Source: Eledone cirrhosa (taxonomy: Eukaryota). From it: 64,000 bases of DNA. The position numbers and the translations under genes were made by a program. This document shows positions 15,229 to 55,120 of the stretch, in pieces (the first letter of the stretch is position 1; every line of letters starts with the position of its first letter). The stretch spans positions 342,736,001 to 342,800,000 of the forward strand of contig OZ024741.1 in the NCBI GenBank assembly GCA_964016885.1. Reading direction: 5' to 3'. The notes under the pieces are model-generated. The model did not search any database, was not told where the DNA came from, and was given only the letters and a program-made list of their open reading frames with translations.

Positions 15229-15424
15229 GTAAGTTATTCCAGGTTGAATCGGAGGTAACCACAGTAAGTAAGGTACTCAGTACATAGCAGCGTATAAAAG
15301 TTTTAATATAGATGAGATTCTACAGGACTAGAACTGTTTCATTCTTTAGAAATCATCCAGATTCCTGATGATTTCTAAAGAATAAAACAGTTCTAGTCCT
15401 GTAGAATCTCATCTTTATTAAAAC
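15229..15424 (-). mobile_element. Family C pLTR with short inverted arm; HHR on plus strand at 15361-15407
   Basis: attc-CTGATGA-tttctaaagaat-aAAA(core G12 mutated)-cag ttctagtc ct-GTA-gaat. Arms invert around 15358 and both ends are in (TA)n. Confidence 0.85.
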
Positions 15425-18029
15425 TATATATATATATATATACGTTATATATATAAAGAAGAATGCAGTATCATATAATCTGACATGATTTTATTGATTA
15501 CGTCATTACTGTTATATATATATATATATATATATATATATATATATATATATTTATATATCATTTATCAGTATTATATCTACATCGTTGTCTGTATCTT
15601 ATTTGTTCATATCACACTCAGTCACACGATATTTCTGGAGGGTTTTTTTAATCTATAAATAGTACATTTAGTATTGGAATTGTTTCTATCATAGTTGTCA
15701 GTTTTTCTTTCCTCTCTTGTATCGTTCAGCTTATGCATACACACAGACACACACACACACACACAGACACAGACACAGACACAGACACACACACACACAC
15801 ACACAGACACAGACACACAGACACAGACACACACACACACACACACACACACACACACACACACACACACACACACACACACACACACACACACACACAC
15901 ACAGGCACACACAGACACACACACAGACACACACACACACACACACACACACACATACACACGCACACACACACACACACACACACACACACACACACAC
16001 ACACACACACACACACACACACACACACACACACACACACAAACACACACGCGCAGACACACACACAGACACAAACACACACACAAACACATATATATAA
16101 ACACATATATATATAATATATATATAATATATATATAATGTATGTATATATATATATATATATATATGTAAATATATATATATAATATATATATATATAT
16201 ATGCATATATATATGTGATATATATATTGTATATATATATATATGATATATATATAATGTATATATATATATAAATACACACACACAGGTATATATATAT
16301 ATACAAACATACATACATACATACATACATATATATATACATACATATATATATATATAAATATATATATATATATATGTATGTATGTATGTATGTATGT
16401 ATGTATGTATGTATGTATGTATGTATGTATATATATGTATTTATATATATATATATATATATATATATATATATATACATATATATATATATAATATATA
16501 TGTATGTATGTATATATATATATATATATATATATGTATATATATATACATGTGTGTGTGCGTATTTATACATATATATATACTTTATATATATATCATA
16601 TATATATATACATTATATATATATATATGCATATATGTATGTATGTATGTATGTATGTATGTATGTATGTATGTATATGTATTTATATATATATATATAT
16701 ATACACACATCTGTGTGAGTGTAAATGTTTCCTGTTGAAATTACAAGGAAGAAAAAAAAAAAACCTTTCGTCTGATTTTACTTTTGTTGTTTGTAGTGAG
16801 ATGCTGCTCTCTGTCTTCGGTGCTTGAGGTGTTTTCACTGTTGTCTTTGTGTGGTATGTATATATATATATATATATATATATATATATGTATATATATA
16901 TATATATATATATATATGTATATATATATATATATATATATATATGTATATATATATATATACATATATATATATATATATATATATATATATATGTATA
17001 TATGTATATATATATATATATATATATATATATATATATATATATATATATATATATATATATATATATATATATGTATATATATATATATATATATATA
17101 TGTATATATATATATGTATATATGTATATATATATATATATACATATATATATACATATATATATACATATATATATATTATATATACGCGCACACACAC
17201 ACACACATATATATATACATATACATATACATTATATATATATATATATGCATATACATTATATATATATATACATATACATATACATTATATATATATA
17301 TATGCATATACATTATATATATATATATACATATACATTATATATAATATATATATATACATTTACATTATATATATATATATATATATATATACATTAT
17401 ATATATATACATATACATTATATATATATATACATATACAATTTTATATATATATATATATATATATATATATTCAAATATACATATATATTTAAACACA
17501 TATCTATGTATATATACATATATATATATACACCTATATATATACATATATATATATTTATATACATACACACATATATATATATATACATATATGTTCA
17601 ATTCTGTATGTTGTGTTTGCTGGTGACTTTGTCGTATTTGATGTAGGTTTTATATTTTCACAGTTTATTTTTTATTTTTTCACTGTTGGGTGTTTATCCC
17701 CCCCCCCTCTCTCTCTCTTTTTCTGTTGATTATCTCTCCCCAGTCTCTCCCTTTGTTGGTTAACTATCTCTCCTCTCTTTCTCTTGTTTTTCTTTAATTG
17801 TCATTTATGTATCTTCTCGTAATGTTTACTAAATCTGTTTGTATCAAATATTTAATGAATATTTTTAAGTGTCGTTTGGTAGTTATGCCGTTTAACTTTT
17901 ATTTGAGGGTGATATCATCATCACCACCACCACCACCGCATCCACCACCACCACCACATCCACCACCACAACCACCACCACCACTACTACCATCATCATC
18001 ATCATCATTACTATTATTATTATGAATAT

Positions 18030-18470
18030 GGATTGCTCGAGCGTCGGACGCCATGCGTTGCAACATAGAGTTACGCCCCTTTACGGTCTGAGTTCAAATC
18101 CCACGGAGGTTAGCATTGCCTATCATCCTTACGGGGTCGATAAAATAAGTAACAGTAACGCACTGGGGTCGATTTAATTGGTTTCTCCCTCCCATTCAAA
18201 TTGCTGGCCTTTTGCCTAAATCAGAAACCCTTATTATCATTATTGGTTATTTGGTGGGTGGTTTGGCGGTATCGTTAGAGCGTCAGACATCATGCTTTTC
18301 AGCATAGAGTTATAGCCCTTTACGTTCTGAGTCCAAATCCCGCTGAGGTTAACTTTGCTTTTCATCCTTACGGGCTCGATAAAATAAACACCAGTAATGC
18401 ACTGGGGTCGATTTAATCGACTTTTTTCCCCTCCCCCAAAATTGTCGGCCTTGTGCCCAAATCAGAAATA
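18030..18470 (+). mobile_element. Two S1 SINEs in sense orientation
   Basis: GAGT(T/C)CAAATCCC B box and core CATCCTTACGGG(G/C)TCGATAAAATAA. Confidence 0.85.
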
Positions 18471-18976
18471 ATTATTGGTTATTGATTATGTGTCTGCCTA
18501 TATGTGTTTGATTTTACATCATTCCCAGAGCACCTATCATAATACGGTTTGTTTTTGTTTTCATTCTCCACATTTTTTACTACATATTTTTATATTTGGA
18601 TAATTTCTCCATTTCCTTGATATATATATTTTCAGGATCAATGAATCAATTAGAAGGTATTACTTTTGATGTGATTTTCCACTACACTATTTGGTCGGTT
18701 GCCTTTTATCTACCTGGTTCTTTTTCTTTTCATCTATTTTTCATTTATGAAGTGGCAGGAGAATAGCAAAATAGGACATCCTTACCTTTCTCAAGGTAAT
18801 ATTATATATGCTTGAACCTGTAACTCCTGATGGATCGTTTCTTGGACATTTTCAAAACCTGGAGGAGCGCACCCTCTCTCCAGGCTAGAACACAGTCAAT
18901 TTCTTCCAGAGAAGGTTAACAAATGATAGAGAGGAAGTGCAAAGTTAACCTCGGCGGGATTTGAACTCACCGCCCT

Positions 18977-19670
18977 TATAATAATATAATATAATATAAC
19001 ATAATATAATATAATATAATATAATATAATATAATATAACATAATATAATATAATATAATATAATATAATATAATAATATAATATAATATAATATAACAT
19101 AATATAATATAATATAATATAATATAATAATATAATATAATATAACATAATATAATATAATATAATATAATATAATAATATAATATAATATAACATAATA
19201 TAATATAATATAATATAATATAATAATATAATATAATATAACATAATATAATATAATATAATATAATATAATATAATATAATATAATATAATATAATATA
19301 ATATAATAATATAATATAATATAATATAATATAATATAATATAATATAATATAATATAATATAATATAATATAATATAATATAATATAATATAATATAAT
19401 ATAATATAATAATATAATATAATATAATATAATATAATAACATAACATAATATAATATAATATAATATAATATAATATAATATAATATAATATAATATAA
19501 TATAATATAATATAATATAATAATATAATATAATATAATATAATATAATATAATAATATAACATAATATAATATAACATAACATAATATAATATAATATA
19601 ATATAATATAATATAATATAATATAATAATATAACATAATATAATATAATATAATATAATATAATATAAT
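18977..19670. repeat. (ATAAT)n pentanucleotide microsatellite between S1 SINE pieces
   Basis: Direct reading; S1 SINE at 19670-19855 (minus) and a fragment at 18938-18968. Confidence 0.95.
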
Positions 19671-53099: not shown

Positions 53100-53768
53100 T
53101 AATTGGATATATGAGAGGGATGAACACAGATGTAACTATACATGTGTTCCAATTGCAAATGACAAAGTTAGCTAGGTTGAAAAATACTAATTTAAAACAA
53201 TCTGTGTTCATCCCTCTCATATATCCAATTATATTACACGGCCCGGAAAGATTCCCTTCTTTGAGCTATTTAATTGTAAAAGACTATTTTGAGTTTATAA
53301 CTCAATCTATAATATTCTCGGCTCCGTATGTAGAGCTAACCTTAGTCTCATAAACCCAGCTGCTATTTTTAGCGGCACGAGTATGAGACGCGCTAGGCGC
53401 TGCGACATGTGCGTTTATATCAGCATATCTTTCAGTCTTCTTAGATGGTTTGAAGTGAAAGGTACGAATTTTCCTGGATACCCGCTGATGAGCACAGGAA
53501 TTCTGGCTTTCACTTAATAATTCTTGCCCAATATAGGTTTGTTATTTTTATTGATTTATTACTTTGAATCGAGTCAGGCAAACCATATTGTTTTAAATTA
53601 GTAATTTTTCAACCTAGCTAACTTTATCATTTTCAATTGGAACACATGTATACTTATATATGTGTTCATGTCTCTCATATATCCAATTATATTACACGGC
53701 TCGGAAAGATTCCCTTCTTTGAGCTATTTAATTGTAATAGACTATTTTGAGTTTATAACTCAATCTAT
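53100..53768 (+). mobile_element. Inverted plus partial tandem (458-bp period) non-coding element with degenerate HHR
   Basis: 53100-53200 is the reverse complement of 53587-53690, and 53203-53310 repeats at 53661-53768. CTGATGAGC near 53486 with GCAAAAC near 53578. Confidence 0.72.
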
Positions 53769-53982
53769 GATATATATATATATATATATATATATATATA
53801 TATATATATAGAGAGAGAGAGAGAGAGACATACACATATATACATATGAGTAAACACACGTGAAAGACAAAAGTATATGTATACATACAATATGTACACA
53901 TATAGAAAGGAAATCCTTATAATTATATACCCCTACACGCATATATACACATATATACAATCATATATATATATATATATAT

Positions 53983-54169
53983 ATAGGAAAAAGTATGACC
54001 CCGACGGCAGAGCTCAAGCCGTTTCGACGGCTATTTCTGGACTAGTCAAGGAATAGCCGTCGAAATGGCTTGAGCTCTGCCGTCGGGGTCATACTTTTTC
54101 CTATTTCCCACTCTACTACCCTAAGTATTGAGTACTCTGGTAAGTTATGGTCCATCTTGTTCCTTTGTT
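53983..54169 (+). mobile_element. Fold-back family A
   Basis: Palindrome 53983-54104 centred on GACT|AGTC, with the shared tail. Confidence 0.9.
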
Positions 54170-54318
54170 ATATATATATATATATATAGACATCCACATA
54201 TAAATATATATATATAGGCATGCATATATATGTATATATATATATATATATATATATATATATATATATATATATATATATATATATATATATATATATA
54301 TATATATATATATATATA

Positions 54319-55120
54319 TATTTATTAAAATAACAGATTAAAGTTTAAGCAAAGAATCGCTGCTTTCACCCTTAACGGGATCTTCTGAAACTAACAAAGT
54401 CAATCTGTAAACGCAGAAATGGATATTTCAAAAAACGTTGCAACCGGAGGAAGACAGGAAGACGATACTTTGGTTCATGGAAACGTTCGCTGGCAAAGAA
54501 CGGGAAAAAACGAATAATACGTCATTAATAGGAGCGGTGGATTAGCAGTATCGGTAGAGGGTCGGACGCCATGCTTTCCAGCATAGTTACGTCCCTTTAC
54601 GATCTGATTTCAAATCCCGCCGAGGTTGACTTTGCCTTTCATCCTTACGGGGTCGATAAAATAAAGTACCAGTAATGCACTGGGTAATTGCTGGCCTTGT
54701 GCCTAAAGTAGAAACAATTAATAGGAGCGGTGATGCACCACCTAGGAGAACATTAGTCTACGACCTCTTTTATACCATAAACGTGGTTCTGTCTTTGCGC
54801 GTAATTGTTTTTCACCGCTCCTATTAATGACGTATTATTCGTTTTTTCCCGTTCTTTGCCAGCGAACGTTACCACGAACCAAAGTATCGTCTTCCTGTCT
54901 TCCTCCGGTTGCAACGTTTTTTGAAATATCCAGTTCTGCGTTTACAGATTGACTTTGTTAGTTTCAGAAGATCCCGTTAAGGGTGAAAGCAGCGATTCTT
55001 TGTTTAAACTTTAATCTGTTATTTTAATAAATATTTGCTCTACGGTTCTTATATATTTGATATATATTTTCCTTATCGAGCCCTCTTTGGATTTTAGTCT
55101 TCAATTTTATTATTATTACT
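54319..55120 (+). mobile_element. Family F inverted pair (HHRs at 54342-54392 minus and 54960-55010 plus) with nested S1 SINE
   Basis: Arms 54319-54539 and 54813-55032. SINE 54540-54716 with 16-bp TSD ATTAATAGGAGCGGTG. Confidence 0.88.

Follow-up and report, generated by a model that had tools for sequence, protein, structure and literature searches.

Penelope-like elements (PLEs) of the Hydra clade target (TA)n tracts and carry canonical hammerhead ribozymes, and in one Hydra-clade family a 5'-truncated copy stands inverted at the element's own 5' end (Craig et al. 2021, PMC8557442). The same paper describes a 30-40-bp tail that is often found at one end only, and it lists the formation of PLE tandem and inverted structures as an open problem. 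A 31-bp tail that is optional on one inverted pseudo-long terminal repeat (pLTR), together with head-to-head palindromic junctions, had been reported by Arkhipova et al. (2013, PMC3846280). In vitro, a PLE of the anole (PAc, Poseidon of Anolis) nicks and extends both target strands, initiates inside the RNA at two sites, which delimit the tail and are not homologous to the cut DNA, and uses uncleaved RNA as template, the protein being predicted to form a dimer (Frangieh et al. 2024, PMC11167929). This work explains the tail, but the main text examined contains, as far as we saw, no description of how inverted arms arise or of a one-of-each pairing of their ends.

These systems are compared here with a 64,000-nucleotide (nt) stretch of Eledone cirrhosa DNA (GenBank assembly GCA_964016885.1, contig OZ024741.1, positions 342,736,001 to 342,800,000), hereafter the window, whose positions are numbered from its first base. 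An earlier note on the window had proposed that inverted insertions follow a rule in which one arm runs to the full 3' end and the other stops at a fixed internal TA microhomology. The core phenomenon is already known, as one-end tails on inverted pLTRs were described in 2013 and 2021, and the earlier note arrived again at a signature already on record and at a mechanism published in large part. What the window seems to add is longer tails, a short TA overlap, a strict one-of-each pairing and two insertions bearing open reading frames (ORFs) in which the tail is present only on the inverted arm. By title and start of abstract, none of the literature searched reports that Hydra-type PLEs have long tails, a TA overlap or one-of-each pairing; older subscription papers (Evgen'ev & Arkhipova 2005 and also Arkhipova 2006) and Repbase lay outside the search and may describe it.

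Inverted pairs consist of one long and one short arm

A self-search of the window with microsatellites masked yielded 68 inverted rows, from which we counted as pairs those arranged head to head with a microsatellite at both outer ends; copy A5, with arms of 13 nt, was added by eye. All 20 clean head-to-head pairs, belonging to 11 families, combine one long and one short arm, the long arm carrying a tail of 17-165 nt and the opposite arm stopping earlier (in single-copy families the long or short class is defined by the pair itself). The asymmetry of the inverted pairs is real. Set aside were the asymmetric rows with one end not at TA (14764-15140, 56671-58465 and 58817-60086), two with TA in the centre (21692-21902 and 37640-37829), rows joining short interspersed elements (SINEs) to one another, rows between separate insertions and TA-less palindromes.

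As the earlier note had claimed, the short end recurs at a fixed place within a family. The short arms of all six family A copies stop at one site (TTCC/TAT or TTTC/ATAT), and the long arms run 65-80 nt further; those of family C at 15424 and 30041 stop at ATTAAAAC, with tails of 70-74 nt, and those of family F at 31362 and 54319 stop at TTTAATAAATAT, with a tail of 86 nt. The same asymmetry was found at 22077 (tail of 163 nt), 26071 (88 nt) and 48068 (78 nt), the short arm at 48068 ending, however, about 7-10 nt short of the ATTAAAAC site of the other family C copies. The pairs thus resemble the described inverted pLTRs in the inverted 5'-truncated 5' copy, the head-to-head arrangement, the one-end extension and the microsatellite target, but their tails are mostly 65-165 nt rather than 30-40 nt, and a pairing described as frequent or optional is seen in 20 of 20 cases.

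The two rows with a central TA tract are observations apart. Two inverted copies surround a central (TA)7 at 21692-21902, one being 42 nt longer and the other stopping at ATAT; both outer ends reach TA at the same base, and their orientation is ambiguous, which makes this the only possible case of two like ends, if read outward. At 37640-37829, a hammerhead piece of family C and about 40 nt of sequence resembling a long interspersed element (LINE) form an inverted duplicate around a central TA tract, which looks like a fold-back at the DNA level. In addition, extra short copies face the main arm tail to tail across (TA)n at 21903-21952/26091-26130 and 15446-15512/15072-15142; they end at about the same site, are 38/39 identical in family G and may derive from a third priming event or a nested insertion.

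A short TA overlap marks the short end in most families

The overlap was taken as the alternating T/A run common to element and flank at the short end, with values entered by hand and family C scored as 1 in the sum. It amounts to 3-5 nt in 8 of 12 families, to 2 nt in families G and N, to 1 nt in C1 and J and to 0 in C2, which adjoins (GA)n. The fixed TA microhomology of the earlier note therefore holds for most families but is not general, the ATTAAAAC site of family C having 0-1 nt. The summed overlap of the 12 families was 38 nt against a null mean of 11.4 (1 of 10^6 draws), and under a stricter null conditioned on at least 1 nt the mean was 20.8 (113 of 10^6 draws).

The overlap is real, yet it does not choose the site. 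Equally good TAT/ATA sites occur 3-5 times in family A arms and about 20 times in family F, and two 7-nt TA runs located 20-35 nt downstream in the F tail are absent among the loose read ends listed (see below), where the 4-nt site is the peak, indicating that overlap alone does not select the site. Microhomology as a site selector was rejected. The earlier note had also taken internal priming via microhomology as established; inverted pLTRs and internal priming are, whereas priming of PAc is independent of homology and shows no strand difference (PMC11167929). In the window, a start site lacking homology to the primer was found in C1, C2 and J.

Hammerheads, polarity and arm variants

Hammerheads were recognized by a core motif that we presume to be the canonical one. 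Its form agrees with a table in Craig et al. (PMC8557442). Three-stem type I cores, putatively self-cleaving, were predicted in ORF1, C, G and M, and a CAGAAGA variant in F; none was recognisable in families A, H, K and L. In C, F, G, M and ORF1 the hammerhead is directed outward, with both ends downstream of it, and hence the arms represent 5'-truncated copies that meet head to head; in ORF1, the predicted cut would lie about 45 nt upstream of the short end and about 134 nt upstream of the long end. The proposal of the earlier note that both strands prime at two preferred sites downstream of the hammerhead fits this anatomy and comes near to the in vitro result with PAc (PMC11167929), in which an AT-rich target is cut and extended on both strands from two start sites bounding the tail. 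Two fixed 3' ends of this type are seen in the window for families A, C and F, and genome-wide for the proximal end of F.

Of the two arms, the one reaching further 5' is without the tail in six insertions (ORF1, ORF2, J, G26072, K and Q) and carries it in five (F1, F2, E, L and G63396), the polarity of K and Q, i.e. which side owns the spacer, being deduced from strand composition or a degenerate core. The earlier claim that the ORF-containing arm is the shortened one was thus borne out in both ORF-bearing pairs (23058-26071 and 42558-48068), but as a general rule for the longer-body arm it was rejected. In ORF1, ORF2, K and Q nothing in the main body matches the tail of the inverted arm over more than 10 nt, so that this tail needs an RNA-templated start of its own, whereas in J and G26072 the tail does match neighbouring template in the main body.

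The ORF1 arms differ at 0/170 positions from each other and by 18% from another copy, C4/C5 are mutually nearest, and locus-specific variants are common to the arms in A2, ORF1, C4/C5 and F2, but in A1, A3 and A6 the closest arm is not the partner. Gene conversion could also produce such sharing. At the centre, the junctions of L, J and G63396 show microhomologies of 4-5 nt.

Several features of the arms and tails were noted besides. In family F, CAGAAGA replaces CUGA(N)GA in all three copies (30406-30366, 54387-54347 and 54965-55005), so that activity of this fold is doubtful. Five of the six family A centres (5215, 13846, 39853, 41933 and 54043) lie at the GACTAGTC palindrome, possibly helix III of a hammerhead, and both short family C centres (15360 and 30100) lie at the CUGAUGA core. 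The tails of the four families H, A, C and L, which are unrelated otherwise, have a YYGAGY motif 52-56 nt ahead of their distal end, as has the F tail at 44 nt; it is a possible protein-binding mark, picked post hoc. Among 150 listed of 307 Rfam matches (E up to 1) there was no hammerhead; all 150 were under the gathering score and were mostly microRNA (miRNA) models on microsatellites and hairpins.

The elements likely belong to the Hydra clade

The window is AT-rich animal DNA, dense in TA, CA and GA microsatellites, and it also holds LINE remnants, decayed PLEs and a recurring repeat that we take to be SINE-like. Three PLE ORF remnants (23826-24974, plus strand; 28167-29815, minus strand; 42767-43640, plus strand) match the C-terminal half of 703-711-amino acid relatives, P0001-P0003 (tblastn E down to 1e-46), which contain YRDD as well as RWR/RWK and DKT motifs, the region of the latter two being lost from the window ORFs. 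Remnants and relatives together give the architecture of endonuclease-bearing (EN+) PLEs, a single ORF with reverse transcriptase (RT) plus, at the C terminus, a GIY-YIG endonuclease; the Pfam match to GIY-YIG at 43008-43505 was weak (E 5e-4, below the cut-off), and Pfam gave no domain name for P0001-P0003. To our knowledge such elements lack RNase H, which Pfam on P0001-P0003 did not confirm. No start of an ORF was detected in the tails with a profile of the N termini of P0001-P0003 (best E 1.9).

Judged by eye against Craig et al. (PMC8557442), ORF1 has the CxCX5C linker as well as CxxC and CxH around the catalytic residues E and N, and it lacks CCHH; the Hydra-clade linker is present in ORF2 and decayed in the 28167 ORF. 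The ORFs thus carry Hydra-clade endonuclease motifs, and the elements likely belong to that clade, with which they share, besides these motifs, the (TA)n target and a canonical hammerhead near the 3' end. They differ from its described members in that the ORFs are 5'-truncated and decayed and in that most short families are not linkable to an ORF. Other hallmarks of EN+ PLEs were also found, namely a predicted hammerhead in the 3' repeat, the inverted 5'-truncated copy, the one-end tail and partial tandems (J, L, G26072 and 3495-4309).

Reads beyond the window

Four public runs were mapped onto 30094-31330, and 24 of 1645 loose-end rows were listed; the raw runs are restriction site-associated DNA sequencing, so that counts are not copy counts, and X1 may be the source of the assembly. 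Among the loose ends listed for F, the largest is at its internal stop, 30337, followed by a (TA)n consensus (2202 reads in X20, 2349 reads in X21 and 116 contigs in X1), and depth is about 7200 just inside the F arm and about 3450 in the tail. Strand-change joints occur in the reads at several positions, those at 30101-30115 being near the edge of the mapped stretch. At 30338, 813 and 828 reads run on past the F proximal site into a single other sequence, which is fixed, ends in CTAGTA and, in our view, resembles a Helitron end.

Non-LTR retrozymes are short hammerhead-bearing non-autonomous derivatives of PLEs, defined as tandem arrays (bioRxiv 10.64898/2026.07.22.740005). The short units of the window are similar, and a family C back-joint from 30162 to 30101, found in reads (15 and 8 start places) and in 3 contigs, gives head-to-tail monomers of about 78 nt; the copies in the window, however, are inverted pairs, and no array of at least two tandem units with complete hammerheads was seen there. 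Exact-pattern scans found neither family A nor family C in the viral contigs searched, and for family C, the only one scanned there, none in the genome or metagenome contigs searched.

Probable priming by both target ends and its alternatives

Inverted PLE pairs in (TA)n probably arise because reverse transcription is primed from the two ends of the cut target, at a distal start in one case and at a proximal start in the other, both downstream of the hammerhead. Starting from the observed anatomy, fixed sites and overlap statistics, we infer a double-strand cut, a dimer and an order of events. The GIY-YIG domain would cut both strands of the symmetric TA tract, as happens in vitro with the anole PLE; the protein, probably a dimer on the tail region, would fix two start sites, and in most families the 3-5-nt UAU(AU) overlap with the primer may aid the proximal one without selecting it. 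The two cDNAs would copy the same stretch of uncleaved RNA up to variable stops, often near the hammerhead, and would presumably then be joined to each other, sometimes via the 4-5-nt microhomologies seen at the junctions; the template could be one RNA read twice or two RNAs of one source locus. A more detailed version, tentative and somewhat doubtful as a whole, is that one Hydra-PLE dimer holds a single uncleaved RNA by its tail and must load a target end on each side of it, the downstream RT rereading the same RNA and displacing the first cDNA, and the cDNA ends pairing with each other (in family A, through the palindromic helix of the hammerhead).

The earlier note called this process twin priming, a loose term here. 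In L1 twin priming both target strands prime on the element RNA, the inversion being joined at a short microhomology; its cDNAs derive from RNA segments that adjoin without overlapping, and its second site varies, whereas the arms in the window copy one stretch twice from two fixed sites. As a family label, L1-type twin priming was rejected, as the arms overlap over 13 to about 740 nt. If true, overlapping twin priming would account in a single step for the inverted repeats, the one-sided tails and the shared arm variants of PLEs, and it would supersede the fold-back model discussed below. The dense young (TA)n-targeted copies of this genome make the link between tail and inverted arms countable, one-of-each pairing and a tail found only on the inverted arm being what separates dual priming from fold-back.

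Several points weigh against priming by both ends. With the anole PLE in vitro there was no strand difference in start site and no homology to the primer (PMC11167929), so that the strict pairing and the overlap go beyond what the biochemistry supports. Folding of arm and tail RNAs gave no common tail structure, and 8 of 10 were no more stable than their shuffles (z above -1), the outliers being 56700-56775 (z -2.46) and the ORF1 tail region (z -1.77). In A1, A3 and A6 the nearest arm is not the own partner, the six family A copies may not all be independent (five lie near one centre), and the overlap at the centres of C1, C2 and F2 is just 1-2 nt. At least six PLE-like insertions in the window have no inverted arm (Table 1), five of the six having a hammerhead core, which is only partial in 27413-29815; inversion is therefore common, not obligatory, and the tandem at 3495-4309 too ends at a TATAT overlap. 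Finally, the evidence on pairing comes from one window. The bimodal end-points that the earlier note had predicted are half shown genome-wide: the F proximal peak is there, but the F distal end fell in a skipped repeat, the read test thus covering the proximal site only, and the family C short site is not among the loose ends listed for same-species runs (one contig in another organism, X5).

Arkhipova et al. (2013, PMC3846280) interpreted head-to-head PLE palindromes as self-priming with an antisense strand as template, in which case a cDNA would fold at a short palindrome and copy itself, and the copy would re-anneal to the target at an internal TAT. Such fold-back accounts for the shared variants, the centre microhomologies and the tail-bearing main bodies (F1, F2, E, L and G63396), has a neighbouring main-body template for the tails of J and G26072 and can explain tandems and small hairpins. 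It is nevertheless an unlikely origin of the pairs, since simple fold-back cannot yield insertions whose tail is solely on the inverted arm, as in ORF1 and ORF2 (and, if the polarity assigned to them is correct, in K and Q), and it offers no reason for one fixed stop among the many TAT/ATA sites of families A and F.

Copying of a preformed hairpin-plus-tail unit as a non-autonomous element, with the fixed stop inherited from one founder per family, appears improbable. The clustering of five of the six family A centres within a few nt of GACTAGTC, which could reflect deletion derivatives of one loop, and the position of the two short family C centres at the hammerhead core speak for it, and such copying may inflate the family A count. 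On the other hand, A5, F1 as compared with F2, and C1/C2 as compared with C4/C5 differ in centre and arm length while the stop is the same or nearly so, subfamily variants are found in both arms, strand-change joints fall at several positions in the reads, and the same pattern in 11 unrelated families is left without explanation.

It is very unlikely that the pairs were shaped after insertion, by loss of the tail between the internal TAT and the flanking (TA)n or by a break in (TA)n followed by fold-back duplication. Microhomology-mediated deletion would also leave the overlap enrichment, and 37640-37829 and 21692-21902 resemble fold-backs made at the DNA level, but there are zero both-long pairs among the 20, the longest TA runs of the F tail (7 nt) are absent from the loose ends listed, where a 4-nt site is the peak, and the near-identical young arms of A2, ORF1 and E are already asymmetric. 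An assembly artefact at palindromes and microsatellites, conceivable because the window is very rich in repeats and contains a perfect duplication (about 550 nt, 49137-50270), is scarcely credible and largely refuted, because arms differ by 0-10% within a locus and independent raw reads from 2026 show the same stop and strand-change joints.

In practice, two 3' ends per family should be provided for in repeat libraries, and the hairpins of inverted pairs are a source of false miRNA or miniature inverted-repeat transposable element calls.

Coordinates and other features of the window

Table 1. Penelope-like insertions and their landmarks in the 64,000-nt window
Feature	Position	Strand	Remarks
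Single-arm PLE-like insertions	3495-4309, 27413-29815, 33400-34761, 45797-45984, 46534-46741, 48081-49121
Family H, head-to-head pair	4703-5130		Left arm with 137-nt tail; right arm ends at TAT, running into (TA)n
Tails with YYGAGY	4704-4840, 13906-13984, 15229-15299, 53235-53312, 30251-30336
Family A, copy 1 (A1)	5155-5352		Hairpin, 80-nt tail at right
Family A, copy 2 (A2)	13787-13984		Arms differ at 0/56 mutually, at least 5/56 from any other A arm
Family A, copy 3 (A3)	39718-39916
Family A, copy 4	41874-42070
Family A, copy 5 (A5)	47042-47153		13-nt arms, other centre, short stop unchanged
Family A, copy 6 (A6)	53983-54169
Family C, copy 1 (C1)	15229-15424		Tail left; short arm end ATTAAAAC, overlap 1 nt
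Family C, copy 2 (C2)	30041-30232		Short arm adjoins (GA)n(TA)n, overlap 0; tail right
Family E pair	22077-23032		Short arm left (ATAT overlap); main body and 163-nt tail right; SINE at centre
ORF-bearing pair 1 (ORF1)	23058-26071		Inverted arm 23058-23800 with 88-nt tail, uncopied in main body; main body ends at 26071
PLE ORF1, 5'-truncated	23826-24974	+	Thumb/linker, CxCX5C, GIY-YIG-type endonuclease, Hydra-clade motifs
Predicted type I hammerhead core of ORF1	25972-26026	+	Mirror copy 23246-23192 on minus strand
Family G partial tandem (G26072)	26091-26526	-	Hammerhead 26262-26229; short end 26091; inverted piece 26452-26510, tail about 35 nt
Family F, copy 1 (F1)	30251-31362		Main body on minus strand with 86-nt tail; 31-nt inverted arm without tail
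Landmarks of F1	30337; 30406-30366		Internal stop; hammerhead-like core (CAGAAGA variant)
Family Q pair	37360-37627		26-nt inverted arm with tail of about 75 nt; opposite side ends at TATAT
ORF-bearing pair 2 (ORF2; family C subfamily)	42558-48068		Inverted arm 42558-42764 with tail; hammerhead 42689-42651
Interior of ORF-bearing pair 2	42767-43640 (ORF remnant)	+	Nested insertions; short end 48068; presumed continuous across nested part
Family J partial tandem	44276-45243		Inverted arm 36 nt longer than terminal copy; overlap 1 nt; centre microhomology 4 nt
Family K pair	52174-53081		Short arm left (TATAT overlap); tail about 165 nt right
Family L	53099-53768		Inverted short arm and partial tandem (458-nt unit); terminal copy with 77-nt tail; centre microhomology 5 nt
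Family F, copy 2 (F2)	54319-55120		SINE at centre; tail on longer arm
Family G pair (G63396)	63385-63807		Left arm 17 nt longer at 3' end; centre microhomology 4 nt

Three further repeats were observed in the window. Positions 1-1822 are occupied by a 73-bp tandem array of 25 copies (98%), and a palindrome of 81% lacking TA flanks lies at 10171-10339. The duplication at 49137-50270 is a perfect 546-nt direct match at a spacing of 588 nt, a possible assembly artefact.

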